A stretch of 52,015 bases of DNA from Burkholderiales bacterium (GTDB lineage Bacteria > Pseudomonadota > Gammaproteobacteria > Burkholderiales > JBOIGA01). The notes beneath the pieces are model-generated. The model was not told the origin of the DNA. It did not search any database and worked only from the letters and a program-made list of their open reading frames with translations. The position numbers and the translations under genes are program-made. Numbering within the stretch: the stretch's first letter is position 1; the number at the start of each line of letters is the position of its first letter. This document shows, piece by piece, positions 15,184-44,019 of this stretch. The stretch covers positions 1-52,015 of the forward strand of contig JBOIGA010000001.1 of the NCBI GenBank assembly GCA_050741875.1, written 5' to 3'.

Positions 15184-18100
15184 TCAAGCCGTCGGCTGCG
15201 ACAGACGTCTGACGGTTGACGCAACCGGCTGATGGATAGGCGTTCTAATGAAGCTTTCGATGTGCCGAATGAGTTCTTCTTCCTGGTAAGGCTTGCCGAG
15301 AAAAACGTTGACGCCGAGCTGCAGCGCGTGATTGCGGTGCTTGTCGGCGGTGCGCGAAGTGATCATGATGATCGGAATGCCGGCGGTAGCCGGATCGCGC
15401 CTTAAGTTCTTGGTCAAGTCGAAGCCGTCCATGCGCGGCATTTCGATATCGACGAGCATGACTTCGGGTGTCAGGTCCTGCAACTGTTGCAGCGCGTCGA
15501 CGCCATCTTTGGCGGTGACGACCTGGTAGCCTTGGCGCGACAAGAGTCTTCCCGTGATCTTGCGCACAGTGAGCGAGTCGTCAACAACCATGACGATCGG
15601 CGCCATGTTCGCTTTTTCGACTCGGGTCTCGATCTGCACGGGAGTTTGCGACAGATACTCGCGCGCAGCGATCTGCACGGGATTCAGCACGAGCACCGGC
15701 TGGCCGTTCGGCATCACGGTCGCACCCGCGATTCCGGGCACGCGCGACAACTGCGGCCCGATGTTCTTGAGCACGACTTCCTGGTTGCGCACGAGCTCGT
15801 CAACGTGAATCGCGAGCCGGCTCTCACCGCTTTTCAACAGCATCACGCAGTTGTATGGCTTGGCTTCGTACTGATGTTCCATGTCGCCAAGCACGCGGGG
15901 AAGATAGTAAAAAGGATACGTGTGGCCGAGCCACTGCACTTCGCGCGTCGCGTACACGTTGTCGAGGACCGATGTCTTGTACTCCTGCACTTGCTCGACC
16001 ATGCTCGATGGAATGGCGTACAGGCGTTGCCCGGCGCGCACGACGACCGCCTGCGTGACCGCGAGGGTCAATGGCAGGAAAAGCGCGAAGCGCGTTCCAC
16101 GGCCAGGGTCGCTCGACACTTCCACGCGTCCGCCGAGGGCCTGGATGTCGGTTCGAACCACATCCATGCCGACCCCGCGTCCGGCGAATTCGGTCACTTC
16201 CTCGGCGGTAGAGAATCCTGGGTTGAAAATGAACTGGTTGATCTGCGTCGCGGTGACTGCGTCTCCCCTCGACAAAAGACCGAGCTCCATCGCCTTGCCG
16301 CGAATACGCTCCGAGTTTAAACCCGCGCCATCATCGGAAACAGTGAGTACGATTTCGTTGGCTTCCTGCCGCAGGTTCAAAGTCAGTTCTCCGAACTCCG
16401 GCTTTTGCAACGCAATCCGCTGCTCGGGAGACTCAAGCCCATGCGCGATTGCGTTGCGCAAGAGATGTTCGAGCGGCGCCGAAATCTTTTCGAGCACGCT
16501 CCGATCGAGCTCGACCTGGCTTCCCGTCACCTCCAGGTTGGCCCGCTTGCCGCAGTCTTTCGCGGTCTGGCGCACCACGCGGTAGAGCCTCTCGACAATG
16601 GTGGCGAAAGGGACGGTCCGGATGCGCATAAGCTCGTCCTGGAGGTTTCTGTTCAAGCGACCCTGGGCGAGCAACGCGGCGTTGGACTCGTCGAGGTTGT
16701 TGAACAGATTTTGCTGCACGGTGGAAACGTCGTGCACCGATTCGGCCATCATCCGCGTTAATTCCTGCAGGCGGGTGTAGCGGTCGAACTCGAGGGGATC
16801 GAATTCCTCCCGCTCCTGCATGCGCGAGAGCCGCGATTGCATCTGCGATTCCGCCTGGATTTCGACTTCGCGCAGTTGTCCGCGCAAACGCACGACGCTG
16901 TCGGACAACTCCATCAGCGTTTGCTTGAATCCGCGCATCTCCCCCTCGACCCGAGTGCGGGCGATACTGATTTCGCCCGCCGCATTCACCAATTGATCCA
17001 CGACGTCCGCGCGTACGCGGATCAAGACTTTCGGCGAGGTGTAATCGACGATTTCCAGCAGCGGCCCGGCTTCCGCCTGGCTTTGCGGCGCCGGACTTTC
17101 AACCCGTTCTTCCTGCTCCTCGGGCATCTCCTCGCCACGCTCGAGCGCCTCGAGCGCATCCGCCGCGCGGTCGAGCCGAGCTTCCAGGCCTTCGAACAAA
17201 TCGGGCGAGATCTCCTGGCTTTCGATCGTTTCCGCGACCGCGCTCTCCATATGGTGGATGAGCTCGCCGAGCCGCATGGCGCCGACCATGCGCGCGCTAC
17301 CTTTCAGTGTGTGCAGCGATCGGCGCAGCGATTGCGAAAGCTGGCTGTCGGCGGAGTCGTCTTTCCAGCGGCGCAAAGCTTCGCCAATCTGCGGAATCAG
17401 CTCCTGCGCCTCTTGCAGGAAAATTGGCAAGAGCTGGGTATCTATGTCGTCGCGGATGAGCCGGCGTTCGACGCGCGATTCGACTTCGCGCTCGGACTCG
17501 GCCTGGGGCAGCAGGGGATGAATCGCCAAGGATTCGGCCGAGTAGCCCAATTCCGCCTCAGGCTCGGCTTCGGTAAGCGAGACGAAAGTGCTGACAGGCT
17601 CGGACACCGCAGGCGCGATCGGCTCGCCGACCTCAAAAACGTCGTGGTCCACGCCGGTTTGTTTGGCGATTGCCGCGGCGAGCATCTGTTCGAGTTCGTA
17701 ACGTTCTCGATCGGCGGCGGGAGGCAGGCGGCGCTTTTCGATATCGCTGACCATGCGCAAAAGCTTGTCAATCGCGTTGCCCGAATTGATGATCCCTGTC
17801 GCTCCCGGATCGTGCGGCTTGCGCTGCAGTTGCAGTATCCACTTCTCGAGCGCAAAGCCGAGCTCAGCAACGTCGGAAAAGCCGGCGGTGCGCGAAATTC
17901 CCGACAAGGTGTGCGCGGCTCGCATGAATGCGTGGGCGGGAGCGCCTCCCGGAGCTTTTTTCCACTCTCCGAACTCGGCGTGCAGAGTTTTAAGGTGCTC
18001 CGAGGCTTCCTCAAGAAAGACGCTATAAAGGGAAGGGGAGACCGCGATTCCGCCGATCGAGATAGCTTCCTCGACAACGGGCTGTGGCGTTTCCGCGGGT

Positions 18101-20673
18101 TTCGGTTCACTTGGTTCGATCTGGGCGACGGCGGGTTCCGAAATAGCGGATTCGGGAACCGCCGCCTCGGAGATAACGGAGATGGCGGCGTCGGGGGCAA
18201 CGGCAGAAGCGGGAGCAATGACGATTCTTTCAAGCGAAGTCGCGGTTTCCAGATCTCCACGCAACTGTTTGGCAGTGGTGGCGAGCATCTTCGCATCGAC
18301 CTCGACTCGTCCCTCGTCGGCGAGTTTCTTTACCCAGTGCGCGAACGACTGGTGAGCCTCGGCGAGAAAAGCGATAAGCGGCGGAGTAGCATTTTTCTCG
18401 AGCTGCAGCCACTGGTTCAACGTCTGCTCGACTTCCCACGCGGCCTCGCCGAGATCGGTCAGGCCGACCATCCGCCCGCTGCCTTTCAAAGTATGGAACC
18501 CGCGTCGGATCGTCGTCATCCCCTCGCGGTTGTGCGGCTGTTCGCGGCAAACGGCGAGCTGTTCGCAAACGGTAGCGAGCACTTCGTCGGCTTCCTGCAG
18601 ATAGATTTGCAGTAGCTCGCGGTCCACTTGCTCTGGCTCGGCCGCGATCAAATGCTCGACTTCTTTCGACGGAACTGCTGCGGCCGGTGGACCGATGATG
18701 GTCGCGACCGCCTGCGTCATGTAGGAATCGGGCTTGGCATCGGGCTGCGATAGCATTTCGACGGCGATTTCGGTCTGCTGGCCGAGTTCGGCGTCGGCGG
18801 TCAGACGCGCGCCTTGATGCAGCACTTTGAAGCTCGTTTGTAGGTTGTCCTTGAGCGCTTCGTTGGCAGGGTCTTTGCGCCACTTGTTGTAAAGCCCTCG
18901 CGCCTTCTGTTTCTCGTCTTCCATTTCGGCTTCGAGACTGGGCTTGGGCAAGATTTCGGTTTCGACCGCGAAAAGCGGAACGGCGTCGGGGTTGAAACGG
19001 CGCAGGACGGCGACCATCATCTGCTCGGTGTCGCCCTGATTGTGGTGCAAGCCCTGCACGTAGAACCCCAGACTGGACAATCCGTCGGCGAGGAGGTTGA
19101 GATCGCTCTCGGTCGGCGCTTCCGCGGCGGCGGCGAATTTTTTGATCAGCGCATCGCACTCGGTCAAGAGCTTCACCGCCGTGTCGAGCCCCATCATGCG
19201 AAGCGCGCCCAAAATCTGGCGAACAAAAGGCTCGAGCCCGGCGAGCTGACTGCGCTGCGAAACATTGCGGAAGAACGAGTCGAGCACCTGCTCGATCTGC
19301 TGCAGATTGCTCTGCACTTCGTTGACAACTTGCGCAAGCAGCATCTTCTCCTGCGCTTTGCGGCCGATTTCGCCCAAAAGGTCCACGTCGGGCAAGCGGC
19401 CAGGCTTGTCGGAGAGCGCACCGAGGAGCCTTGCGGTGACGGCGTCAACCTGCTTCGCTAATTCCGGATTCACCTCGGTGTAGCGATCCACGGCGTTTTC
19501 AGCCACCAGAAGCGCGGTTGCCATTTCAAGCGCGATTTCCTCGCGTTTTTCCTTGAGATGCGAAGGCAGTTTGGCCGAGACACGCTCGACCAGATCGGAA
19601 AGTTTGGCCAGCGGCGCGTTGTTGAGCTCGCCAAAAATTTCCTTGAGCTTTTGTGCGCGCTCGCGAAACGCCGTCAAAGTATCTGGATTTCCACCGCTGT
19701 ATTTGACCCACGCGTCCTTGGCGACGCGCAAGACTTCCTTCGCTTCTCGCAGCGGCTTCTCAAACTTCGCATTCTTCACCTCGACCTGCGCCGCAGGCAG
19801 TTCGCTCAAAATGTGATTGTCGAGGTCGTAGAGCTCCTTGACCGCTTTGATGCGCTCGCCGGCAGGTTCGCTCAGGGCGACGTGGTACAAGACGTCGCGC
19901 AGCAGTCGTTCGGCGAAGTAGGCCGAGCCGGCAGCCAGGTTCTTCATCTGCAGGTCAATGCGCATGCAGATTTTGCGGACCGCGGAGGACGCAGCGATGC
20001 CTTTATGAACGATCGCTTCGATCAGCGCGGCGGAAGCCCACCAGAAGGTACGCTGGACCGGAAGCGGTTGCGCGCGCTCGATCGCGGCCAAAGCGTCGCT
20101 CATTACGGCGATACCTTCCGGATCATTCTTCAGCCACGAAAGCAGCCCGCGTTCGAAGCGCGCGCGTTGGCGCCTGATATATTGCGGCATCCCGTCTTCG
20201 GAAACGGGTTCGGGCGCGGGATGGTGCGGCGGCCTGCGATCGAGATCCGGAAAGAACAATTCGACTTCGGAGACTTCGGTCGCGCCTTGCGCCTGGCACA
20301 ATTCGCGGAACAAAGGAAAGAGCCGCGCCGGAATATTGGGCTGCGAATTCATCAGCTCGTCGAGGTATTGGGCAAGCGCTGATAACGCCCGGCGCAAGAG
20401 CGCTATTCCTTCCTGTCTGGCGTTGGCTTCGCGCTGAGTGAGTCCTGAAAGCAGGTTCTCGGTTTCCTCGGCGAAACGCGCAAGTCCGTGCAGTCCGACG
20501 ACCTGTACCGCTCCGGTCACCTGATGCAGGTGCGTTTTGGCGGCCTTGAGCTCATTGCCATCGCCCGGATTACCGGCGAAACGGTCGAGACACTGGCGCG
20601 CGCGTTCGAGCGCGTGGTCAATCTCCGGCTTGACCCACGACAGCGGACCTGAGTCGAAAGTAGAGGTCGTCAC
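15184..20673 (-). CDS. chpA: ChpA/PilL-type hybrid CheA histidine kinase of the Pil-Chp system (multi-Hpt, HATPase, CheW, REC)
   Basis: 1829 aa. At least four Hpt-like sites: [39 protein letters not shown] and [13 protein letters not shown]. CheA ATPase region ([25 protein letters not shown]), a CheW-like region and a C-terminal receiver ([18 protein letters not shown]). Confidence 0.9.
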
Positions 20674-22787
20674 AATTTGAATCCGGCGACTGAGCTCTTG
20701 AGTTCGCTCGCGAGTTTGGCGATCTGCCGCATGGATTGCGCGGTCTGCTGCGTGCCTTGGGTGGTCTGGCCGGTAATTTCAAGAATCGCGTCCATGTTTT
20801 CAGCGACCTTGATCGCCGATTCGGCCTGGATCCGCATGCCGAACGTAATACCTTCGACGAGCTCGGCAAGAATCCACGAAACGCGTCCGATCTCGTTCAA
20901 GGCGTCGCTGGTCGCGTCCGACATTCTGGTTTCCTCGACGACCTCCTGCGTGCTTCGCTCCATCGCCGCGACCGCGTCTTGCGTATCGGTCTGAATGGCT
21001 TTGACCAGAGTCGTGATCTGTTTAGTCGCTTCGGCCGAACGCTCGGCCAAGCGTTGCACTTCCTCGGCCACCACGGTGAACCCGCGCCCGGCTTCTCCCG
21101 CGGAGGCAGCTTGAATCGCCGCATTCAAGGCGAGCACGTTGGTCTGTTCGGTAATGTCGGCGATCAGCTCGACGATTTCACCGATCTCCTGCGAGCTTTC
21201 GCCGAGGCGTTTGATCCGCTTCGAGGTGTCCTGAATCTGGTCACGAATCGAGTTCATCCCGGTGATCGAATCCTGCACCACGCCCGCGCCTGTTTCCGCT
21301 GCCGCAATCGATTGTTCGGCGACTCGCGCGCACTCCTGCGCGGACATCGAAACCTGTTCGATGGATTGCACCATCTGCTGCACCGAGTCGGTCGTTTCCT
21401 GAATCTGCTGGGACTGAACCTGAGCAGCCTGAAGAAGCCGAGTGGAAACGGACTGCGCGACTTCGGTGCCCTGGCTTAATTGCGCCGCGGCCTTATTAAT
21501 TCCCGTGACGACTCCGCGGAGCTCTTCGACCGTGTAATTGACCGAGTCGGCGATCGCGCCCGTGATGTCTTCGGTCACTTTGACCTGCACCGTCAAGTCG
21601 CCGTCGGCGAGGGTGCCCATTTCATCGAGCAGGCGCAAAATAGCTTGCTGATTGCGGCTGCTTTCGGACTCGGCCTGGACCTTGCGCTGCTCGGCTTCGC
21701 TTGCCTGCCGGCGGCTTTCCGACAAGAACGACCATCCCAAAAGACCCGCGCAAAGAAGCGCGAGCACCGCCGACATTACGGCGCCAAGAACCAGACTTGT
21801 TTCGGCGCTTTCGGCGCCCGCTTCAAAAGCGTCGCCGAGCTTGCCCGAATCCGTAAGCAGGCTTTCGCTCTGCGTAATGATGCTGCGATTGGCTTCCTTT
21901 GACGCGATCAGCTTCTGCGCATTACCGAGAATCGTTCTCGCGTTGCCTTCGTAGTCTTTGAAAGCGACTTGCAACTCCTCGAGTTTCTTGCGGACTTCGT
22001 TGTCCCGAACGGCCGATACGCGCAATGCTTCGCTGCCCGTGGCAAGGCCGCCCAGACTCTCACGGAAGGAATTCGTGTCCTTGCTCAAGAGGAATATCAG
22101 TTCGGGGTCGATGACTTCGCCGGACAGAAGCGCGTTGGCGTTTTTTGCCATCCGCTGAGTCAACATGACCTGTTGATTGGCGACCAGAAGTTCGCGGTTG
22201 CCAGCCCCCGACTGCGCCATGATCGAGACGATCGCTTCAGTCGTTTCCAACAGAGTAGAGTTACTGTCGTTGATTCCGGCGACACTCTTGCCGAAACTGG
22301 TCAACGCGTCTTGTTCGTTGAGGATTGCGGAGGCGCTTTTTTCAACGTCTTCCCAGCGCGCTTTCAGCCCGGATAACAAGGCGACGACTTCGCCGTCTTG
22401 CGCGGCCGAAAGGTCGATTCCCGCAGCGGTCCCGCCGTCGCTTAGAAGACGGAGGTTTGCGCCAAATTCGTCGCGGCTCTCCTTGAGCTGCTCGAAACCG
22501 ATCGCATTACCCTCGACTGCGAGTTCGCTGCCTTTCGCCATGCGCTGCGAAAGCATTTCCATTTCGGTCGCGGTGGCGATCTGCTGTGTCTGGCGTTTGC
22601 CTTCCTGCGCGGCAAAATACGTCAGCGCGGCCGCGAGCAGTAGAAACAAACCAAGCAATCCGGCAAGCAGCCAAAACTGCTGCGCCGCTGCCAGTCCGAA
22701 CATCGGCTGCGAAGGCGCGGCTACCGCCTTCTCTTTCTTTGGCTGCTCGACGGCAGCCTCGAGGCCTTCCGGTAACTTCAGATCCAT
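20670..22787 (-). CDS. pilJ: methyl-accepting chemotaxis protein PilJ
   Basis: 705 aa with two TM segments and a large periplasmic domain. Conserved MCP signalling hairpin ([48 protein letters not shown]). Confidence 0.9.
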
Positions 22788-22827
22788 GGCGTAGTCTCCT
22801 TAAAACTGATCGTTTTCTCTTCGTCGT

Positions 22828-23337
22828 TCAGGCTGCGATCTGAAGAAAGCTCGGATGCTGCAGCAATTCACGGGCATTGAGTTCGTTCCAAAGGTTGCCT
22901 TCGTCGTCCAGATAACGCGCGGCAAGCCAGGGCGCTGGATCGGGGTTGTCGGTCAAACGCAATTGATCGGGTTTTTTCAATCCCAGCATTCGGTCGACGA
23001 GCAAGCCGCAATTAAGTCCGTATCGCTCGCCGACCAGCAAGAGGCGGCTGCTGCCGCGGATCGGGGAAACCGCCCCGCCGAGAAAAGCCGCGAAATCGAC
23101 GATGCCAAAAAGGTTGCCGCGAACGTTCGCGAGTCCGCGAAACCAAGGTCGCGTCAGCGGCACGGGAGTCAGTTCGGGAACGGGCAAGACTTCTCCCGCC
23201 CCGGCGAGAGGCACTACCCAATTGCTCTCGCCGGCGGCAGCGCTCAATTTGGAACTGTCGGATTGCGTCGCCCCCGCTTTTTGCAAACTGTCCATGAGCG
23301 CGATCTGGTAATCGCGAAGATTGATTCGCTGCGCCAT
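22828..23337 (-). CDS. pilI: CheW-like coupling protein PilI
   Basis: 169 aa with a CheW-domain pattern (RPWFRGLANVRGNLFGIVDF). Positioned between pilH and pilJ. Confidence 0.8.
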   Translation of the reverse strand: MAQRINLRDYQIALMDSLQKAGATQSDSSKLSAAAGESNWVVPLAGAGEVLPVPELTPVPLTRPWFRGLANVRGNLFGIVDFAAFLGGAVSPIRGSSRLLLVGERYGLNCGLLVDRMLGLKKPDQLRLTDNPDPAPWLAARYLDDEGNLWNELNARELLQHPSFLQIAA

Positions 23338-23702
23338 TACGCGATCTCCGCGATCTTCTTCAATAGCTCGGCCTGATTGATCGGCTTCACCAGGTAATCC
23401 TTGGCGCCCTGACGCAGGCCCCAGATGCGATCGGTCTCCTGGCCTTTCGAGGAGCAGATGATGATCGGGATATGTTTGGTATCGTCGTCCTTGCTCAATG
23501 TGCGCGTCGCCTGAAATCCGTTTTGGCCGGGCATGACGATGTCCATCAGGATAAGGTCGGGCTTGAGCTGTTTAGTTTTTGTGACCGCCTCTTCGGCATT
23601 CTCCGCGCTGGAAACCTGGTAGCCGTTCTTGCTGAGGATTTCCCCCAGAAAAGTTCGATCGGTCGCGGAATCCTCCACGACGAGAATATGTTTGACCGCC
23701 AT
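23337..23702 (-). CDS. pilH: CheY-like response regulator PilH
   Basis: 121-aa single REC domain (ILVVEDS, LILMDIVMPGQNG, KP). The ATG overlaps the pilI region. Confidence 0.85.
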   Translation of the reverse strand: MAVKHILVVEDSATDRTFLGEILSKNGYQVSSAENAEEAVTKTKQLKPDLILMDIVMPGQNGFQATRTLSKDDDTKHIPIIICSSKGQETDRIWGLRQGAKDYLVKPINQAELLKKIAEIA

Positions 23703-23711
23703 AAATCGCTC

Positions 23712-24104
23712 CTAAACTCTCTCTTCGATTTTTTGGGAATGATTGCCCACTGCCTTCAACAAACTGTCCTTCGAAAAAGGTTTGGTCAGGTACTCGTCGG
23801 ACCCGACCATGCGCCCGCGCGCACGATCGAAAACCCCGTCCTTGCTCGATAACATGATGACCGGCGTGGCCCTGAACTTTGGATTCTTCTTGATCAGCGA
23901 GCATGCCTGATAGCCATCCAAACGCGGCATCATGATGTCAACGAATATGACGTCGGGATGATGGTCGGTGATTTTGGCGAGAGCGTCGAAACCGTCCTCG
24001 GCCAAAATGACCTGACAACCCGCTTGGGTCAAAAAGATCTCGGCGCTTCGGCGTATGGTATTGCTATCGTCGATGATCATGACCTTAATTCCAGATAGGG
24101 TCAT
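23712..24104 (-). CDS. pilG: CheY-like response regulator PilG
   Basis: 130-aa single REC domain (VMIIDDS, VIFVDIMMPRLDG, YLTKP). First gene of the operon. Confidence 0.85.
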   Translation of the reverse strand: MTLSGIKVMIIDDSNTIRRSAEIFLTQAGCQVILAEDGFDALAKITDHHPDVIFVDIMMPRLDGYQACSLIKKNPKFRATPVIMLSSKDGVFDRARGRMVGSDEYLTKPFSKDSLLKAVGNHSQKIEERV

Positions 24105-24308: not shown

Positions 24309-25433
24309 TCAGCGGATCAGCTTGTTGCCCTTGCCGATGATCGTCAGATCCACATACTTCGATCCGCCGTGATTGCTCGGCGCGAACGAGACGACGAAGC
24401 CGCCGACGTCGAGTTGACTGATCCTCTCCAGTTCGGCGATCAACTTGTCGCGAGTCAGGTCCTTGCCCACGCGGCGCAAACCCTCGACAAAGACCTTGGC
24501 GGCGACATAGCCTTCGATGCTCGTGTAGTCTAGCGCGCTCTGCGGGTTGACTCGCGCCATCGCTTTTTGATAATCGCGGACAACCGCTTCCGCGCCCCAC
24601 GGGAAAGGCATCACTTGCGAGACCGCAACGCCAACTCCATCGGTGCCCAGGTCATCGGCGAGCGATTTGGTGCCGACGAAAGAGACATTGAAAAACTGCG
24701 ATTTCATTCCGGCTTTCTTCGCCTGCCTGATAAATTCCGCGCAACTACGATATGCGCTGATCATGACCACAGCGTCGGGCTGTGCGGGGCCGATTGCTTT
24801 CACCGCCGCCGCGACATCGGTCGTATTGCGTTCCACCGTGCCGGTCGCGATGATTTTCAGCTTGCGTTTGGCCATCGCGCGCTCAACCCCCGCGAGGCCC
24901 GCTTTGCCGTACGAATCGTTCTGATACATGACCGCGATTTTTTCGATCGAGGTGGTGGTCAAGTGCTGCACGATCTTTTCGGTCTCGTCGTAATAGCTCG
25001 CGCGCACATTAAAAATGTATTTGTTGAACGGGTCGCGAAGCAGCTCAGCGCCGGTATAAGCGCCAAAAAACGGCACTTTTGCCGCAGTAAAGACAGGAAT
25101 CGAAGCCTGCGCGGTCGGCGTACCGACATAACCGAAAAGCGCAAAGACCTTTTCGTCTTCGATCAGCTTTTTGGTGTTCGGCGCGGCTCGATCGGGCTCG
25201 TAGCCATCATCGAGCGATTTCAATTCGATTTTTCGGCCGTGAACTCCGCCGTTGCGATTGACTTCGTCGAAGTAAGCCATCGCTCCTTCGCGCATTCCCG
25301 TGCCGAGGCCGGATGCGGGACCGCTTAGCGCAGCCGACTGACCGAGCACAATCGTATCCGGGTAAACTCCGTTTTCCGCGCGCGCGATTGAAAAGGCCGC
25401 GAGTAACACCAAGCCAAGTGGTAAGAACCTCAT
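24309..25433 (-). CDS. ABC-transporter periplasmic substrate-binding protein (LivJ/branched-chain amino-acid type I PBP family), orphan
   Basis: Start at ATG 25433 (MRFLPLGLVLLAAFSIARA, GGAGAA RBS) within ORF 24309..25634. Type I PBP pattern (LGQSAALSGPA, FGYVGTP). No permease or ATPase gene is adjacent. Confidence 0.8.
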   Translation of the reverse strand: MRFLPLGLVLLAAFSIARAENGVYPDTIVLGQSAALSGPASGLGTGMREGAMAYFDEVNRNGGVHGRKIELKSLDDGYEPDRAAPNTKKLIEDEKVFALFGYVGTPTAQASIPVFTAAKVPFFGAYTGAELLRDPFNKYIFNVRASYYDETEKIVQHLTTTSIEKIAVMYQNDSYGKAGLAGVERAMAKRKLKIIATGTVERNTTDVAAAVKAIGPAQPDAVVMISAYRSCAEFIRQAKKAGMKSQFFNVSFVGTKSLADDLGTDGVGVAVSQVMPFPWGAEAVVRDYQKAMARVNPQSALDYTSIEGYVAAKVFVEGLRRVGKDLTRDKLIAELERISQLDVGGFVVSFAPSNHGGSKYVDLTIIGKGNKLIR

Positions 25434-25527
25434 GATTTTTCTCCCCTGAGCGAGTTCTACAAGCGAACTGACGCGAAGGGGATAGCAACTTCCATGCCTA
25501 ATTTGCAGAAAAGCTGTTTTCGCCCCA

Positions 25528-26004
25528 ATGAGTTTCCGAATGAGCGTGACAAAAAGGCTTAAGTCGGCTCTTCGACTACGCTCAGGGCAGGCAGTGTTGC
25601 TGGCGGGGCTTTCTGCCGCGTGCGGATCAAACACGATCGAGGTCTGGGACGCCTGGGCACGGGCGACGGCGCCAGGACAAGAAGTCGCCGCAGCCTACAT
25701 GACGATCAGAAGCCCGGTCGAGACAGAGCTCATCGCCGCCGTAAGCGAGGTTGCGGAGGCGATCGAGATCCACAGCATGAGCATGGGGGATGGAATGATG
25801 CGGATGCGCAAGCTCGACAAGCTTAGTCTGCCGGCGCGCAAGGCATTTGCGCTCGAGCCAGCGGGTTATCACCTCATGCTGCTAAACCTGCGAAGGCCTT
25901 TGAATCAAGGGCAAACAATACCGCTCGTTCTCATCTTCGAGCGGGACGGCGAAACCCAAGTCAAGGTTGAAACGATCGCCCAAGTTCGCGGCCGCGCGGA
26001 TTAG
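25528..26004 (+). CDS. periplasmic copper chaperone PCu(A)C (DUF461)
   Basis: 158 aa. The pattern AWARATAPGQEVAAAYMTI..IEIHSMSMGDGMMRMRKL..GYHLMLLNL is the H(M)X10MX21HXM-type Cu(I) site region of PCuAC. The start is uncertain because codons 13-21 are contributed by a REP-like element. Confidence 0.8.
   Translation: MSFRMSVTKRLKSALRLRSGQAVLLAGLSAACGSNTIEVWDAWARATAPGQEVAAAYMTIRSPVETELIAAVSEVAEAIEIHSMSMGDGMMRMRKLDKLSLPARKAFALEPAGYHLMLLNLRRPLNQGQTIPLVLIFERDGETQVKVETIAQVRGRAD
25568..25591. repeat. REP-like module ctcttcgactacgctcagggcagg (inverted copy of the module at 42946-42969)
   Basis: The reverse complement cctgccctgagcgtagtcgaagag matches cctgtgctgagcgtagtcgaaggg at 21/24 positions. Confidence 0.55.
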
Positions 26005-26037
26005 GCAAAACGCCAGAATCTCGACTCTTTCGGCAAG

Positions 26038-26802
26038 TTATTGGCAAGCCTCGGGAGCCGCCTTCCAAGTCCCGAGTATCGCGTTTTCGCGCCGCAGGTT
26101 TTCCATTATTTCGAGTCCACCTTGCTTAACGGCGCGCAGATCTGAATCGGGGAGTTCCTGAACGATTCTCGACAGGGCCTGGGCTCCGGAAAGTTTGCCC
26201 GCTGCAAGCAATCGCACAAGCTTCGCGCTGACGGGATTGAGCACAATGAACCGTACCGCGTCACCCAAATCGCGGAAAACCAGCAGATGCGTAGGCTCCT
26301 CGCTCTGTGGCAAGTGCTTGGGCGAAATCTTGTGAACGGCGTAAGGGTAGTGAAGGAGAGATCGAACCGGGTTCAACGCGGGTCGCCTCGTAAGCAGATC
26401 GCCGTGCGGTTCGATCTTGGCGAATTCAATCTCCTCGTTCGAGGTGTCAACAGCGAGCTCAACCCACTCGTAGTGCGCGAGATGAATAAGCCAATCCGGA
26501 TCTCCCCGGCGGGATTGCAGGTGTTCGAGAAACTCTTCGGGAATTTGCCGAAACAGCGGAGTGCGGCACCGGTGGAAAGCGAAAAACTCGCGAACGATCT
26601 CATCCCATTTTCGCCTGCTCAAGACTTTCCGGCAGACGGGAAAACACGCGAGGAGAAAATTTTCGACATTGTTGTATAGGAGCTCGTCGTAGATTTTCAT
26701 CCGCCGCGCCGCAACGCCCGCGGGCGCCGGATGTTTTTTCGGGTCGCGAATGTGCCGGGTAAATTCGAACTGATAGCGCTGGAAATTAGGATGCCGCGGC
26801 AT
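26038..26802 (-). CDS. DUF2063-family protein, HvfC/BufC-like partner of the MNIO enzyme
   Basis: Start at ATG 26802 ([21 protein letters not shown]) within ORF 26038..27000. It overlaps the stop of the upstream DUF692 gene by 17 nt. The N-terminal FQxxFxxxIRDP pattern is typical of DUF2063. Confidence 0.75.
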
Positions 26803-27607
26803 GCTGCAGTCTGGCGATGTGCGCGACTTCCCTGGTGAGATCGGCGAGCGGTGGAATGTTGAAATCGCGCTCAAGCAAAGTCGGCTTGACGCCGAACAAC
26901 TCGTAGCTGAACTCGAGTAGACGCCAGACCGGGTTGATGACCGTGGCGGCATGCGTATCGACGAGCAAATCGGGAGCTTCGACGTAATGCCCCGCCACAT
27001 GCAGATACGCTACCCGGTCCCGCGGCAAGCATTCGATAAATTCGCGTGCGTCGTAACCATGATTGACACTGTTGACGAAGACGTTGTTTACATCGAGGTG
27101 CAAAAAGCAATCGGCTTCCTCGAGCACCGCGCGGATGAATTCGAGTTCCGACATCTCGTTGATCGCGGGAGCGACGTAGAAAGACGCGTTCTCGACGGCA
27201 ATTTTCCGCTCGAGAGTGTCCTGGACAGATCGAATACGTCCGGCGACGTAGCGCACGGCCTCTTCGGTAAACGGGATCGGAAGCAGATCGTACAAATGTC
27301 CGTCGTCGCTGCAGTACGAAAGGTGCTCGGTGTAGAGCGAAACGCCGTGCAATGTCAAAAACGCCTTGATTCGGCGCAGCAGCTCTTCATCGAGCGGCGC
27401 GGGGCCGCCGAGCGAAAGCGATAGACCGTGACAGACGAAAGGATAGCGCTCGGTGAAATAGCGCAAGTTTTTGCCGTGCGCGCCGCCGACCTCGATCCAG
27501 TTTTCCGGAGCGACTTCGAAGAACTCGATGACTTTGGGAACGCGCTTCTTGAGCGCCGGAATCAGTTCCCGGCGAAAACCCAAACCCGCGCCATGGACAC
27601 CGGTCAC
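26786..27607 (-). CDS. DUF692 / MNIO-family (MbnB/HvfB/BufB-like) multinuclear non-heme iron oxidative enzyme
   Basis: The core [72 protein letters not shown] is the TIM-barrel DUF692 signature. The start is provisionally the GTG at 27607. The 64 codons upstream in the ORF track are an out-of-frame reading of the precursor gene. Confidence 0.85.
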
Positions 27608-27626
27608 GGCGCGGGGTGACAAATGA

Positions 27627-27914
27627 CTACTTGCTGGCCCCGCACTTTCCTTCGCCACACTTGCCGTCGGCTTTCTTGTCGGAAGTCTTGTTCGCGCCGC
27701 ATTTGCCTTCACCACACTTGCCGTCGGCTTTCTTGTCGGCCGACTTGCTGGCCCCGCACTTTCCTTCGCCGCATTTGCCTTCCTTGTCCTTGGCTTCATC
27801 GGCGGCGACTTGATAGCCGGAGCTTAAGCTTTCCATTGCGAAAGGATTGGCATTCGCGACCGAGAAAGCCATCATCGACAACGCACTGCCCAATACTGCA
27901 ATCGACTGTTTCAC
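27627..27914 (-). CDS. secreted Cys-repeat precursor (HvfA-like): signal peptide + 3 x [..[15 protein letters not shown]]
   Basis: The GTG at 27914 lies 6 nt after AGGAG. Product: [22 protein letters not shown]|[73 protein letters not shown]. Six Cys, all in GKCG context. It lies 20 nt upstream of the DUF692 gene on the same strand. Confidence 0.8.
27630..27790. repeat. three tandem ~54-57-nt coding repeats inside the precursor gene
   Basis: The units cttgctggccccgcactttccttcgccacacttgccgtcggctttcttgtcgg, aagtcttgttcgcgccgcatttgccttcaccacacttgccgtcggctttcttgtcgg and ccgacttgctggccccgcactttccttcgccgcatttgcc are contiguous. Confidence 0.85.
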
Positions 27915-28120
27915 GTCTATCTCCTGAAGTTGAATTAATTGCAATCTTTCGTCGCCTGACCCAGCCTTCCCGCGTCAGTCACCAGTGTCTCTTTCAAGCT
28001 TCGCCCGACTATCTCGAAAAAATCTTCTTTCTATCTCGGCATTTCGGCCGACAACGATTTTCGGGTAAAAGCCAGCGGCCCGCAAACACTTACGGTGGCG
28101 CCCGCCAGTTGGATGAACCA

Positions 28121-28149
28121 CTTGAAATAAACGAGGCGGCACCCATTTT
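28121..28149 (+). promoter_or_regulatory. sigma32 (RpoH)-type heat-shock promoter for the hsp20 gene
   Basis: cttgaaa (28121-28127), then 14 nt, then cccatttt (28142-28149). The consensus is CTTGAA-N13-17-CCCCATnT. Lies about 48 nt upstream of the ATG at 28197. Confidence 0.55.
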
Positions 28150-28196
28150 GAGGCTGTCAGCGCCAAAGCGCTAAGTTAAAATATAGGAGATAAGAG

Positions 28197-28622: not shown

Positions 28623-29612
<990 letters not shown>

Positions 29613-29632
29613 GCGAAGCGGAAGGGAGACGA

Positions 29633-30202
29633 ATGCCAGCCAGGCCAGGGGAAAGGCGCCAGCAGATTCTGCAGACTCTAGCGCAGATGCTCGAAAATCC
29701 GCTCGGAGAAAAAATCACTACTGCGGCGCTTGCCGACCGGCTCGATGTCTCCGAAGCCGCGCTTTACCGCCATTTTGCGAGCAAGGCGCAGATGTTCGAA
29801 GGGTTGATCGAATTCATCGAGCAAACGCTTTTCGGCCTCATCAATAAGATCACCGCCGAAGAGCCCGCCGGCGCGGCACAGATCGAGGCAATCGTTTCGG
29901 TGCTGCTCGGCTTTGCGCAGAAAAATCCGGGAATGACTCGTGTCCTCATCGGCGACGCGCTCGTCAACGAGCACGAGCGGCTGCAGGCGCGAATCAATCA
30001 GTTGCTCGATCGCGTCGAAGCGACGCTCAAGCAGTCGTTGAAATTCGCCGAAGCTGAAGGCCAGGAGTCGGGCAACGCGCAAGTCGCGGCCAACATTCTC
30101 GTTTGTTACGTTGTCGGCCGCTGGCATCAGCACGCCAAGAGCGGGTTCAAGCGCGATCCGCTCGCCGGTTGGTCTGACGCGGCGCAAGTGCTAATCAAGT
30201 GA
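29633..30202 (+). CDS. slmA: TetR-family regulator, nucleoid occlusion factor SlmA-like
   Basis: 189 aa. N-terminus RRQQILQTLAQMLENPLGEKITTAALADRLDVSEAALYRHFASKAQMFEGLIEFIE resembles SlmA. The assignment to SlmA rather than a generic TetR regulator is by recollection of that motif. Confidence 0.65.
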   Translation: MPARPGERRQQILQTLAQMLENPLGEKITTAALADRLDVSEAALYRHFASKAQMFEGLIEFIEQTLFGLINKITAEEPAGAAQIEAIVSVLLGFAQKNPGMTRVLIGDALVNEHERLQARINQLLDRVEATLKQSLKFAEAEGQESGNAQVAANILVCYVVGRWHQHAKSGFKRDPLAGWSDAAQVLIK

Positions 30203-37766: not shown

Positions 37767-37837
37767 CTTGAGGGTTCCTTCCGTCCGCGTTCATGCCGGC
37801 TCCGTGTACGCACTGGAAGGATCGAGCGCATAGGACT

Positions 37838-38521
37838 ATGCGGATTCTGATCATCGAAGATAATTCCGACATCCTCGCTAACCTCTATGAGTTTCTCGAA
37901 CCGGCGGGGTACGACCTCGATAGCGCTCGCGACGGCTTGACCGGCCTTGCTCGCGCAGCGGAAGAAGGTTATGACGCGATCGTCCTCGATCTGATGCTGC
38001 CGGGTCTCGATGGATTAACTTTGTGCCGCCGGTTGCGCCGTGAATTGCGCAAACCAACCCCAGTGCTCATGCTGACCGCGCGCGACACGATGGACGACAA
38101 GCTCGCCGGTTTCGACAGCGGCGCCGACGATTACCTGATCAAACCATTCTCGCTGCCCGAGCTCGATGCGCGCCTGAAGGCGCTGGTGCGGCGCGCTCGC
38201 GGCACTCAGACCGATGCCGTCTTAAGTCTTGGCGAACTTCGTTTCGACACTTCGACTTTCGAAGTCTCGCGCGCAGGGGCAAAAATCGAATTGACTCCTA
38301 CGGGCTACAAGCTGCTCGCTTGTCTGCTGCGTGCCTCGCCGCGAATCCTCACCAAGGAGGTCTTGGAGCGCGAAGTCTGGGGCGAGCAACCTCCCGACAG
38401 CGACGCTCTGCGCACTCATATCCATGCCTTGCGTCAGGCCGTGGACAAACCTTTTTCCGGTCCCATGTTGCGCACCGTGCACGGAATCGGTTACCGGCTG
38501 GTGGACAAGGATGCCGACTGA
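37838..38521 (+). CDS. OmpR-family two-component response regulator
   Basis: Start at ATG 37838 (MRILIIEDN). REC domain (VLDLMLPGLDG, KP) plus a winged-helix trans_reg_C domain (LTPTGYKLLACL..VHGIGYRL). Confidence 0.9.
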   Translation: MRILIIEDNSDILANLYEFLEPAGYDLDSARDGLTGLARAAEEGYDAIVLDLMLPGLDGLTLCRRLRRELRKPTPVLMLTARDTMDDKLAGFDSGADDYLIKPFSLPELDARLKALVRRARGTQTDAVLSLGELRFDTSTFEVSRAGAKIELTPTGYKLLACLLRASPRILTKEVLEREVWGEQPPDSDALRTHIHALRQAVDKPFSGPMLRTVHGIGYRLVDKDAD

Positions 38522-39743
38522 ACGATCGCTCCATACTCGAATTACGGTCGCCTTCGCTCTCCTTGCCGTCGTGGTCTGCGGGTTTTTCACGATTGTGGTT
38601 TACGTCTCCTTCGAAATCATCGAACACAACCTGTTTTCGGGCCACCTGGGCGCGGAAATCGAATGGCTTGCCGACGGCATGGAGAACGGCCGCGCGGTCG
38701 AAGTCCCACCGGGCCGGCGCTTCTTCACCGAAGCGACGGCGCCGGAAGATCTCAGAGCGTTGCCGCCCGGTTACCACGATCTCGAACGGGGTTTAAGCGC
38801 CTTGCACGTTTTCGTCCATGAGCGCGGCGACCAGCGCTTTATTTTAGTCAGCGAGGAACGAGATTTCGAACAACAAGAATCGCTCCTCTACCTGTGCCTA
38901 GGCATCGGCTGTGTTGCCGGCCTGGTAATCTCGATTTGGCTTGGACGTCTTACTTCGGGTCGAGTCATTGCGCCGGTGACCGCGCTGGCCCATGCCGTTC
39001 AGCAAAGAGAGGAGAAGTTGCCTTCGGTGACGGCGCCGGACGAAATCGGAACGCTGGCTCGCGCCTTCGCCGCACGCACAACCGAGCTTCGGCAATTCCT
39101 GGTGCGCGAGCGCCTGTTCACTGCGGATATCAGTCACGAACTGCGTACTCCCCTGACGGTGATCCTCGGCGCCGCTGAGGTGATCGGCCTGCACGCGAAA
39201 GATCAGCGCGGGCTCGTCACAGCCGCCGAGCGTATCCGGCGCACCGCTGCGGAGATGAGCGAACGAGTCAGCGCTTTTCTGCTCTTGTCGCGCGCGCCTG
39301 AAACGCTCGATGCGCCGAGGATCGCGTTGAATCCGATCATTGAGCGCGAGCTGGAGCGTTGCCAGCCACTCCTCGCCGGGAAAGAGGTAACACTGCATGC
39401 CGACGCGCCAACCCAGGTATTTGTTCACGCGCGGCCGGAATTGGCCGCGACCGCCATCGGCAATCTGATCCGCAACGCCTGCCAATACACGGAGCGCGGC
39501 GACGTGAGAGTGTGTCTGACCGCCGATTGTGTGATGGTCGAAGACTCTGGACCAGGGCTGCCCGATTCCGTGCGAAGCCATCTTTTCGAACGCTTTGTCC
39601 GCGGCAGCGAGGAAAATGTCCCCGGCTTGGGCTTGGGGCTCGCGATCGTCGAGCGCGTGACCGAACATCTCAACTGGAAGCTTCGGTTCGAAGATCGCCG
39701 CTCCGGCGGCAGCTGCTTCATCCTCAATTTCCCGCCTGCTTAA
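38511..39743 (+). CDS. sensor histidine kinase (2 TM, HAMP-like, HisKA, HATPase_c)
   Basis: The ATG at 38511 overlaps the regulator stop by 11 nt. H-box FTADISHELRTPL, N-box LIRNACQYT, G-boxes DSGPGL and GLGLGLAIV. Confidence 0.85.
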   Translation: MPTERSLHTRITVAFALLAVVVCGFFTIVVYVSFEIIEHNLFSGHLGAEIEWLADGMENGRAVEVPPGRRFFTEATAPEDLRALPPGYHDLERGLSALHVFVHERGDQRFILVSEERDFEQQESLLYLCLGIGCVAGLVISIWLGRLTSGRVIAPVTALAHAVQQREEKLPSVTAPDEIGTLARAFAARTTELRQFLVRERLFTADISHELRTPLTVILGAAEVIGLHAKDQRGLVTAAERIRRTAAEMSERVSAFLLLSRAPETLDAPRIALNPIIERELERCQPLLAGKEVTLHADAPTQVFVHARPELAATAIGNLIRNACQYTERGDVRVCLTADCVMVEDSGPGLPDSVRSHLFERFVRGSEENVPGLGLGLAIVERVTEHLNWKLRFEDRRSGGSCFILNFPPA

Positions 39744-41431: not shown

Positions 41432-41563
41432 TTGTTATCCGGTAGTCCGCCGCTTACGCGACGCCTTAGATAGACGCCATGGAGCAATTCGTCAGTTTTA
41501 GCGTCAAAATTGATGGTCGAATTAATAGACGGCAAACGACTGAAAACTCCCGGTCAATCTCCC

Positions 41564-42838
41564 ATGCCCAAAAACAGCGAACGCGAAATCCTCGTCGTCG
41601 AGGGCCGCGAGATCGCGATTTCGAACCCCCGGAAGGTCCTTTTTCCGAAGGCGGGATACACGAAGCTCGATCTTGCACGCTACTCCCTCGCGGTGGCCGA
41701 AGGCGCGCTGCGCGGCGCCGGCGGACGGCCGAACGTGCTCGTGCGCTATCCCAACGGCATCACGGGCGAGTTTTTCTTTCAAAAGCGCGCGCCCCAATCG
41801 CGGCCCCCGTGGATTGAAGTCGTCTCCCTCAAGTTTCCGTCGGGCCGTAGCGCGGAAGAGGTGGTGCCCCGCGACGCTGCCGCGCTCATATGGATGGCGA
41901 ATCTCGCGTGCCTCGAGCTGCATCCGCACCCGGTCCGCGCCGACGATCTCGACCATCCCAACGAGCTTCGCGTGGACTTGGATCCGGTGCCGGGCGTGGA
42001 GTGGAGTCAGGTCGTGGAAGTCGCGCACGTCGTACACGCAACCCTGAAAGATTTCGGCCTTGTCGGCTGGCCTAAGACTTCCGGCTCGCGCGGGATGCAC
42101 GTGAACGTGCGCATCAAGCAACGCTGGACTTTCGATGAAGTGCGTAGAGCCGCGCTCGCACTCGGCCGTGAGGTCGAGCGGCGAGCGCCCAGCATTGCGA
42201 CGAGCAAATGGTGGAAAGAAGAGCGCCACGGTGTGTTCGTCGACTACAACCAAAACGCGAAGGACCGCACTGTCGCTTCCGCGTATTCGGTGCGGCCGAC
42301 TCCTGACGCTCGCGTATCGGCTCCGCTGACGTGGGATGAAGTCGAAACCTGCGATCCCCGCGATTTCACCCTCGCGACGATGCCCGCACGTTTCGCCCAG
42401 CTCGGCGATCGGCACGAGGGGATCGATCAGCATCCCTGCTCGCTCGCGAGTCTGCTCGAACTTTCGGCGCACCACGAGCGCGACGGCTTGGGCGACGCGC
42501 CTTGGCCGCCGCAATACAAGAAACAACCCGGCGAACCGCCGCGGGTACAACCCTCGCGCCGCCGTTCGGCGCAAACGCCTGGTCGCCGAGTGACAAAGCA
42601 TCCCTTGATCGAGATCGGCCGCGCGCAGCGGAAGGAAGATGCGCTCGCCGGATTCGAACGTTGGAAGAAGCGTCACCCAAACGCAGCCGCGCACTTGACT
42701 CCCGCCGACGTTCTCGTCGATTCGATGCGCGGCCGCTCATCCACTTGGACTCGCATACGCGTCAACCTGAAGAATGTGCCGGCGAAGCTTCGGCCAACTC
42801 AGGAAGCGCTCGATCCGGATGATGAACCGGAAAGTTAA
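41564..42838 (+). CDS. LigD-type polymerase/primase domain protein (stand-alone PolDom, Prim-PolC-like) with long basic C-terminal extension
   Basis: Start at ATG 41564 (MPKNSEREILVVEGREIAISNPRKVLFP). AEP primase-polymerase motifs PNGITGEFFFQK, ELRVDLDP, KTSGSRGMHV and VFVDYNQN. Confidence 0.85.
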   Translation: MPKNSEREILVVEGREIAISNPRKVLFPKAGYTKLDLARYSLAVAEGALRGAGGRPNVLVRYPNGITGEFFFQKRAPQSRPPWIEVVSLKFPSGRSAEEVVPRDAAALIWMANLACLELHPHPVRADDLDHPNELRVDLDPVPGVEWSQVVEVAHVVHATLKDFGLVGWPKTSGSRGMHVNVRIKQRWTFDEVRRAALALGREVERRAPSIATSKWWKEERHGVFVDYNQNAKDRTVASAYSVRPTPDARVSAPLTWDEVETCDPRDFTLATMPARFAQLGDRHEGIDQHPCSLASLLELSAHHERDGLGDAPWPPQYKKQPGEPPRVQPSRRRSAQTPGRRVTKHPLIEIGRAQRKEDALAGFERWKKRHPNAAAHLTPADVLVDSMRGRSSTWTRIRVNLKNVPAKLRPTQEALDPDDEPES

Positions 42839-43685: not shown

Positions 43686-44019
43686 GGTCCACTCCTCGGA
43701 GAGATGTTGCATTTGCAACGACGCGACCATAACCCAATGGAATATTGTGCGCAAGTACTGTGCGCTGCGGTGTCACAGGAGCGCAGCTGCGAATACAGCA
43801 GCACGTATCAGCCCAACGCGAATGTCCACGTGATTGCGCGGCCGATAAGCAAATATCAATTGTCGAACGCAGAGAGTATCGCCTCAGGACCAAGTGTAGG
43901 GCGGCGGCTGAAACGAACCAAAGTCGCGATGCAGCTCACGTGCGAAACGCGCCGAAATGGAAATTCAACGGCCGCCGGTGCTGTGCGTGCGTGGAGGCGG
44001 CAGAACTACAAGAACGTAG

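Follow-up and report, generated by a model that had tools for sequence, protein, structure and literature searches.

Gene organization of the hvfABC locus

The present study concerns a 52,015-nt stretch of DNA (hereafter the window; positions 1 to 52,015 of contig JBOIGA010000001.1, GenBank assembly GCA_050741875.1) from a Burkholderiales bacterium, in which three adjacent genes on the minus strand resemble hvfA, hvfB, and hvfC of Haemophilus influenzae, i.e., a gene for a cysteine-rich secreted peptide followed by the genes for the two proteins that modify it. The genes and the features predicted within the precursor are as follows.

27627..27914, minus strand: hvfA-like gene for a 95-aa precursor, a member of the HvfA / Buf_EGKCG / Lys-Cys captophorin family
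27849..27914, minus strand: predicted Sec signal peptide, residues 1-22, putative cleavage after ANA
27639..27782, minus strand: core of the precursor, in which three [E/D]GKCGEGKCG double motifs (27753-27782, 27696-27725, and 27639-27668) hold six target Cys
26786..27607, minus strand: hvfB, peptide maturase in the family of multinuclear non-heme iron oxidases (MNIO, DUF692), 273 aa, GTG start at 27607
26038..26802, minus strand: hvfC, PME1 partner protein (DUF2063 and an RRE-type C-terminal domain), 254 aa, ATG start at 26802

The precursor gene starts with a GTG at 27914, which is located 6 nt after an AGGAG sequence, and ends with a TAG at 27629-27627. The start of hvfB sits 19 nt past this stop codon, and hvfC overlaps the stop of hvfB by 17 nt, an overlap that has an equal length in the related loci L024, L081, and L083; because of this spacing and this overlap, the three genes are predicted to form one operon. 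An initial annotation of the window, which was made from the DNA letters and a list of open reading frames (ORFs), had described the same arrangement, namely, a precursor ORF with its GTG, AGGAG, Sec-type signal, three repeat units of 19 aa or 57 nt, and six Cys in GKCG, followed by a DUF692 gene approximately 20 nt downstream, an overlapping DUF2063 gene, and a converging gene for a PCu(A)C copper chaperone. Each of these features was found in the sequence at the coordinates expected.

The precursor peptide HvfA

Regarding the product of hvfA, its N terminus consists of a Lys at position 2 as the n-region, a hydrophobic core of 16 residues, and an AxA site (ANA, followed by NP). The mean Kyte-Doolittle value is +1.8 for residues 4-19 and -1.1 for the mature part. 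Its homologues have a matching signal-peptide layout, which is followed by a conserved NPFAMxxLxxGYxVA block. The mature tail of 73 residues contains 15 Lys, 13 Gly, 6 Asp, 6 Glu, and 6 Cys, and the six Cys (residues 48, 53, 67, 72, 86, and 91) are each found in a GKCG context and arranged in three units of 19 aa, each of which closes on a double motif. Tandem Repeats Finder reported the corresponding DNA at 27629-27779 (period 57, 2.6 copies, 80% matches, score 218).

The precursor matched the NCBIfam model NF050137 (KCGExKCG_twice, "HvfA family ... RiPP metallophore", in which RiPP denotes a peptide that is made by ribosomes and modified after translation) in three stretches with a score of 83.6 bits (cut-off 19.5). 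It belongs to the Lys-Cys type, and a Pfam search with the same protein returned no match. The regular architecture of three units, which the initial annotation regarded as an unexplored feature, does not set this precursor apart because the same layout occurs in H. influenzae HvfA and in many environmental relatives.

The precursor was also described as hidden in that annotation, on the grounds that the DUF692 ORF in the six-frame translation is extended by codons that read through the repeats in another frame. The extension itself is present: the ORF 26786..27799 (337 aa) consists of the MNIO frame preceded by 64 codons (RKPTASV repeats) that read through the precursor in another frame. However, the precursor is not hidden in public data, since two other public contigs of identical sequence carry gene calls for the 95-aa product and for an HvfB of 273 aa, and the equivalent precursor and hvfB genes have also been called in the close relative L083. 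A gene caller swallowing part of the precursor was found in one JGI call, in which a 300-aa MNIO protein extends into it by an overlap of 34 nt, but in none of the other calls checked; the risk exists, but is minor. An exact look-up of five start variants of the precursor in a cluster index yielded no match, and the 95-aa product on the two other contigs was found through the gene-position index.

In the GenBank record of the window, the annotation pipeline (PGAP) already names both enzymes: HvfB is MGH8726575.1 ("HvfB family MNIO-type RiPP peptide maturase") and HvfC is MGH8726574.1 ("HvfC family RiPP maturation protein"). The copper chaperone PCu(A)C and Hsp20 are MGH8726573.1 and MGH8726577.1, respectively. 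Since one accession (..576) is free between HvfB (..575) and Hsp20 (..577), the precursor is presumably annotated in this record as well.

The maturation enzymes HvfB and HvfC

HvfB scored 421.7 bits with the NCBIfam model for the HvfB family (NF003818, cut-off 360) and 338.9 bits with Pfam PF05114 (MbnB_TglH_ChrH), and aligned to the Histophilus somni structure 3BWW in the PDB with an E value of 2.6e-80. Metal ligands were mapped through HMMER alignments from VcMbnB and H. influenzae HvfB, and their conservation was assessed over 81 aligned sequences. The complete set of iron-site and catalytic residues was present and invariant in 81/81 (H60, H95, E139, D172, N175, H203, D217, H219, E246, and D248, the counterparts of which in VcMbnB are H55, H91, E135, D165, N168, H194, D209, H211, E238, and the base D240). 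Site-3 residues N175, D242, and H244 of H. influenzae HvfB, which have been tested by mutagenesis, correspond to N175, D217, and H219 of the window's HvfB, and the catalytic Asp matching D249 of FonB is also intact and invariant.

In FonB, R15, R16, and F250 tune selectivity for EGKCG substrates (PMC12668002). These residues are R12, R13, and F249 in the window's HvfB, and are retained in 77/81, 80/81, and 80/81 of the sequences, respectively. Both EGKCG and DGKCG motifs are fully modified by FonBC in vitro (PMC12668002).

HvfC scored 274.4 bits with NF050145 (cut-off 142), and its two domains were matched by PF09836 (DUF2063, 87.6 bits) and PF22106 (NGO1945_C, 84.1 bits). It also aligned to the Neisseria protein NGO1945 (PDB 3DEE) with an E value of 5e-14. 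The HvfA-domain, HvfB, and HvfC models were thus all passed over their cut-offs.

Conservation of the locus among relatives

Relatives of HvfB were collected in a scan of one genome per species, which retrieved more than 570, and the best 80 (L001-L080), with identities of 64-75%, were analyzed. They belong to Thiobacillus, Gallionellaceae, Nitrosospira/Nitrosomonas, Sulfuricellaceae, Methylophilaceae, and various gammaproteobacteria. When the count was limited to the 78 loci with enough upstream sequence to be informative, a small ORF was found immediately upstream of hvfB in 66 (85%), and, thus, the possibility that the precursor is not conserved next to these genes is ruled out. The precursors of these 66 loci have a signal peptide, the NPFAMxxLxxGYxVA block, and 2-12 Cys, mostly in KCG, with a variable number of repeats. 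The nearest relatives (69-78% identity) share the three-unit repeat layout, and their neighborhood is that of the window: argB, hsp20, hvfABC, a convergent PCu(A)C gene, a solute-binding protein gene, and pilG.

With an E value limit of 0.001, a protein search with the precursor matched at least 5,889 clusters. Many of these bear the name "HvfA family ..." (NCBI, UniRef) or "uncharacterized low-complexity protein" (JGI). The cassette is accordingly an ordinary member of a very large and already named family. A 2025 survey described a "Buf_EGKCG/oxazolin" profile with approximately 2,000 precursors, mainly from Pseudomonadota, in clusters that combine RiPP, MNIO, DUF2063, and DoxX genes in various ways (PMC12452194). 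More than 24,000 MNIO-PME1 loci have been catalogued by another group, and three products, oxazolin, fontiphorin, and gonophorin, have been characterized, for which the class name captophorins was proposed (PMC12668002 / PMC13097082); the statement in the initial annotation that only a single member had been studied is, therefore, out of date. The locus in the window adds one environmental member to a family of thousands of catalogued loci with three characterized EGKCG products. Having only the A, B, and C genes, six sites, and neither DoxX nor a linked regulator of the extracytoplasmic function (ECF) sigma factor type, it is a clean minimal example suited to heterologous expression.

Approximately 20 of the HvfA-like precursors in relatives from Nitrosospira, Thiobacillus, and some gammaproteobacteria contain, in between the KCG motifs, two EF-hand motifs for calcium binding (DANKDGKISKEE...). 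Examples are the precursor at L021 5593-5973 and those of L007, L009, L011-L013, L016, L022, L025, L026, L032, L040, L057, L058, L073, and L080. Pfam EF-hand models matched the single precursor of this type tested, and similar entries in protein databases are named "EF-hand domain-containing protein / HvfA family".

Proposed modification and function

Taken together, the curated family models, intact catalytic residues, and conserved gene order support the identification of the three genes as hvfABC and, with it, the proposal of the initial annotation that they specify a secreted, modified, copper-binding peptide with Cys repeats. We consider it very likely that the locus is a three-gene hvfABC-type cassette of the EGKCG or Lys-Cys captophorins (Buf_EGKCG, oxazolin-type RiPPs), and that it acts by the copper-buffering mechanism proposed below, in which the modification chemistry, the requirement for a partner protein, and copper binding are taken from published homologues, and we infer export, the cleavage site, stoichiometry, and the part that the peptide plays in the physiology of this organism.

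In this mechanism, translation of hvfA from its strong ribosome-binding site would yield the 95-aa precursor, including its Sec signal. The precursor may be made in excess because hvfB and hvfC have no such site and appear to be translationally coupled. In the cytoplasm, HvfC, a protein with DUF2063 and RRE domains, would hold the precursor and activate HvfB by enabling the mixed-valent state. HvfB, a TIM-barrel MNIO predicted to use O2 and a mixed-valent diiron center, would then oxidize the six Cys by four electrons each (-4 Da) to 5-thiooxazole. The modified peptide would be exported by the Sec system and cut by signal peptidase I after Ala22 (ANA), yielding a periplasmic peptide of 73 residues that is rich in Lys and Gly and probably disordered, the six thiooxazoles of which may bind several Cu(I) tightly and serve as a periplasmic copper buffer under metal or oxidative stress.

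The chemistry of this modification was initially assigned differently. In H. influenzae, HvfB and HvfC install a change of -4 Da on each of the six Cys of HvfA, and the product binds approximately 6-7 Cu(I) with high affinity (PMC11252979). These groups were originally assigned as oxazolone/thioamide (PMC11252979), and the wording "oxazolone/thioamide-modified" is retained in NCBIfam names, which also favors a reading in which HvfBC installs oxazolone/thioamide pairs of the methanobactin type on the six Cys in the window. On the other hand, two independent groups have revised the assignment of what HvfBC makes from EGKCG Cys to 5-thiooxazole (PMC12668002; bioRxiv 10.64898/2026.06.05.730506), one of which comprises the original authors of the HvfA study, while the other also found 5-thiooxazole in fontiphorin and gonophorin. 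The original authors further showed that an HvfC-dependent mixed-valent diiron cofactor is the active species of HvfB. In addition, the window's HvfB is remote from MbnB, with only 32.3 bits against a cut-off of 325 for TIGR04159. We consequently regard oxazolone/thioamide formation as very improbable; the chemistry given in the initial annotation has been superseded, and the database wording is chemically outdated. Captophorin chemistry is taken here to mean that each Cys becomes a 5-thiooxazole, with a shift of -4 Da per residue and an absorbance near 302-305 nm, and that the product binds Cu(I) with high affinity.

Another view is that the small ORF encodes a Cys- and Lys-rich periplasmic peptide that binds metals without modification, or that it is not translated and the enzymes use another substrate. 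In favor of this view, unmodified HvfA still retains 2-3 Cu(I), albeit weakly (PMC11252979), and the sequence scan described below gave no promoter match. Against it, the protein encoded by this ORF is conserved directly upstream of hvfB at the frequency given above, with the number of repeats varying and the KCG context invariant. The canonical AGGAG ribosome-binding site and the operon layout, with 19 nt to hvfB and the 17-nt overlap of hvfB and hvfC, also point to a translated gene that belongs to the two enzymes. Furthermore, very few such precursor genes are found in genomes without MNIO and PME1 genes (PMC12452194). These considerations make an unmodified or untranslated ORF scarcely credible, even less so than the oxazolone/thioamide chemistry.

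Several observations, nevertheless, weigh against the proposed copper-buffering cassette. The signal peptide of the precursor was assigned by eye from the sequence. The precursor scored 72.6 bits with the HvfA equivalog NF050188, under its cut-off of 95, and the N-terminal Cys pair that forms a disulfide in H. influenzae HvfA is absent; for these two reasons, we place it in the HvfA family and not in the equivalog. DoxX (HvfX), the gene for which comes fourth in the operon of H. influenzae, was not found in the 52-kb window by tblastn (best E=0.37) using the Pfam-verified DoxX of relative L038 as the query. The same search finds DoxX in 25 of the 80 relatives' loci, and clusters of the A-B-C genes only are a known combination (PMC12452194).

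Regarding regulation, a scan for sigma70 promoters on the minus strand of the region upstream of hvfA gave no match, and a pair of an ECF sigma factor and a zf-HC2 anti-sigma factor, for which the whole window was searched, is absent. A two-component system at 37793-39743 on the plus strand, approximately 10 kb away (an OmpR-family regulator and a histidine kinase), was considered as CopRS/CusRS, but was not assignable; heavy-metal models ranked at the top, yet with 178 against 279 bits and 113 against 293 bits, and PhoB and PmrA models scored about equally. Because the heavy-metal (CopRS/CzcRS) models are so far under their cut-offs, no metal link is claimed for this system. Since neither a promoter nor a regulator is assignable, a copper-responsive role of the cassette is suggested by analogy only.

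Comparison with known systems

The closest characterized system is oxazolin, HvfABC(X) of nontypeable H. influenzae (PMC11252979; bioRxiv 10.64898/2026.06.05.730506, 10.64898/2026.07.17.739211). Its HvfA has 95 aa, with a signal of 24 residues, three double motifs, and six Cys (PMC11252979); both precursors are, thus, 95-aa Sec proteins with three [A/K/D][E/D]GKCGEGKCG segments and six Cys. The order of precursor, MNIO, and DUF2063/RRE partner genes is shared, and the HvfB and HvfC family models of that system are those passed here. In contrast, HvfX/DoxX and the Cys pair C38/C43 of HvfA occur in H. influenzae and neither is found in the window. The window's HvfB also lacks a segment of approximately 15 residues that is found between the HxxGH and VDTH motifs in 3BWW, a protein 72% identical to H. 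influenzae HvfB. The host of oxazolin is a pathogen, whereas that of the window is an environmental betaproteobacterium known as a metagenome-assembled genome, in which a PCu(A)C gene converges on the cassette.

The fontiphorin (FonABC, Fontimonas thermophila) and gonophorin (NgoABC, Neisseria gonorrhoeae) systems share with the window the Lys-Cys group, an MNIO with a PME1 partner, and the residues on which EGKCG selectivity depends, i.e., the Arg-Arg pair, the catalytic Asp, and the Phe. FonA has seven sites and the window's precursor six.

Bufferins (BufA1 with DUF2282 or BufA2, BufB, BufC, and DoxX; PMC11626156, PMC12452194) resemble the present system in their Sec-signal precursors, a closely related MNIO, and DUF2063 partners, and also in 5-thiooxazole copper ligands and periplasmic copper sequestration, as proposed here. 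They differ in the precursor: that of the window is neither a DUF2282 nor a Cys-Lys type, and is repetitive and probably disordered, in contrast to a folded small protein. Assignment of the window's MNIO as BufB was rejected, with 255.5 bits for NF050167 against a cut-off of 310 and a precursor of the wrong type.

Methanobactin (MbnABC) has in common with the window the oxidation of Cys in a ribosomal peptide by an MNIO to a copper-binding heterocycle. An assignment as MbnB was rejected on the TIGR04159 score given above, on the presence of a DUF2063-type partner and no MbnC, and on a Sec signal in place of a leader. Methanobactin carries oxazolone/thioamide groups and serves copper acquisition, whereas, by analogy with its homologues, the window's system would carry 5-thiooxazole and serve sequestration.

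The upstream region and the hsp20 side

Upstream of hvfA lie the following features.

27915..28196: intergenic region between hvfA and the divergent hsp20, 282 nt, which must contain the hvfA promoter
28121..28148, plus strand: sigma32-type promoter match for hsp20, CTTGAAA-N14-CCCATTT, 49 nt upstream of the hsp20 ATG

Over the intergenic region, the window and L083 share 83% identity, with conserved blocks. Inspection of the region upstream of hvfA by eye for motifs of the sigma32, RpoE, and SigR types revealed nothing convincing, and the upstream regions of relatives had no clear motif in common with the window. An 8-bp direct repeat, CGAGATAG in the minus-strand reading, occurs at 28031-28038 and 28009-28016, 22 bp apart, and the block around it is for the most part retained in L083 (GAGATCG / GAGATTG). 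This repeat could be the binding site of a regulator or may be due to chance. An Rfam scan of the window yielded no hits.

The sigma32-type match is real in that no other occurs in the window, where chance would give 0.01, and both of its hexamer regions are invariant in L083. The initial annotation counted this promoter among the unexplored features; it belongs to a neighbor and is incidental, and approximately a third of the relatives have an ECF pair inserted between the two genes. More precisely, an ECF sigma factor of the TIGR02943 family and a small zf-HC2 (HxxxCxxC) anti-sigma factor are encoded between hsp20 and hvfA in 29/80 relatives, including the near relatives L003 and L024. The occurrence of this pair upstream of the cassette in these relatives is a point in common with the captophorin class (PMC12668002 / PMC13097082), from which the window differs in having no linked gene for an ECF sigma or anti-sigma factor. 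Examples of its position are L024 2111-2880, L019 4748-5571, and L003 4324-5123. Its lack is not unique to the window because several other relatives (L083, L016, L025, L041, L059, and L063) are equally without it.

The convergent PCu(A)C gene

On the other side of the cassette, the following two genes are found.

25528..26004, plus strand: PCu(A)C copper chaperone gene, given as the longest ORF (deposited start at 25540, 154 aa)
24309-25434, minus strand: Leu/Ile/Val-type solute-binding protein gene, beside the PCu(A)C gene

The end of the PCu(A)C gene (26004) is separated from the stop of the convergent hvfC by 33 nt. Its product scored 116 bits with Pfam PF04314 (gathering threshold 29.4) and aligned to the PCu(A)C chains 9YAH and 2K6W in the PDB, and its residues 82-117 comprise an intact HX10MX21HXM motif for Cu(I). 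Judging from these matches, the protein looks functional.

The link between this gene and the cassette is the only thread that the initial annotation called unexplored and that still stands, since no mention of it was found in the literature searched. One explanation for the link is that PCu(A)C is a functional partner of the hvfABC cassette, either by exchanging Cu(I) with the thiooxazole peptide as a reservoir for the metallation of cuproenzymes, or through transcriptional interference. In the latter variant, the sequestration genes and the PCu(A)C delivery gene may be expressed under opposite conditions in a mutually exclusive manner.

Some findings agree with such a partnership. The tail-to-tail arrangement of hvfC and PCu(A)C occurs in 19 of the 80 representative genomes, all from a Thiobacillus-like clade, and additionally in the window's sub-clade (L083, a JGI contig). 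The gap is small, from -7 to +98 nt in 20/22 loci, with overlapping stop codons in six, and the PCu(A)C proteins of these loci are only 42-51% identical to that of the window. The pair is also kept where its surroundings change: hsp20 and the ECF pair are found in some loci and not in others, and the gene past PCu(A)C encodes a TonB-dependent receptor in 16/19 loci and the solute-binding protein in the window. In none of the 80 loci do DoxX (25 loci) and PCu(A)C (19 loci) occur jointly beside hvfABC. A bidirectional terminator was considered for the 33-nt gap and rejected because its fold was no better than that of shuffled sequence (z=0.27), and the lack of a terminator-like hairpin counts on the same side. 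Moreover, both products would be periplasmic Cu(I) binders, a property that is established in the case of PCu(A)C and that has been published in the case of oxazolin.

On the other hand, the pairing is limited to one clade (the Thiobacillus-like genomes and the window's lineage), and because of this restriction shared ancestry is a sufficient explanation for it. An unrelated synteny, that of argB and hsp20 on the upstream side, is no less widespread, the majority of HvfABC loci in other lineages lack a PCu(A)C gene, and the two genes of the pair are not co-transcribed because they lie on opposite strands. The literature search also turned up no support for a partnership; in two survey papers and supplements to them, PCu(A)C was nowhere connected with MNIO, bufferin, or oxazolin, a soft negative because the bracketed spelling "PCu(A)C" is unsearchable. 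Considering both sides, the conserved convergent pairing is suggestive, yet explicable by ancestry, and we regard a functional partnership as rather unlikely, although it has more in its favor than the alternatives on chemistry and substrate discussed above.

The presence of PCu(A)C instead of DoxX next to hvfC throughout one betaproteobacterial clade is absent from the two published surveys, and, if functional, the pairing would tie copper buffering to copper delivery and the metallation of cuproenzymes.

The split between DoxX and PCu(A)C mostly tracks taxonomy. The TonB-dependent receptor gene flanks PCu(A)C in L001, L016, L018, L019, L021, L025, L026, L029, L031, L032, L034-L037, L039, and L044; this protein was considered as a copper receptor, but was not assignable as such, with 153 bits for TIGR01778 against a cut-off of 472.

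Other genes in the window

Beside hsp20, argB (acetylglutamate kinase) and slmA (NF007015, 281 bits) are found at 28713-30202 on the plus strand. The order argB-hsp20-hvfABC is kept in many betaproteobacterial relatives, with no evident functional relation among these genes. Components of a split non-homologous end joining system are encoded further along the window, with a LigD primase-polymerase domain protein at 41510-42838 on the plus strand and a separate ATP-dependent DNA ligase at 43965-45140 on the minus strand. On the opposite flank, the minus strand at 15184-24104 carries a PilG/PilH/PilI/PilJ/ChpA-like chemosensory cluster, as indicated by the order of its ORFs and by Pfam domains on the syntenic JGI contig, which consists of two single-domain response regulators, a CheW protein, a 705-aa methyl-accepting chemotaxis protein, and a 1,829-aa hybrid CheA.

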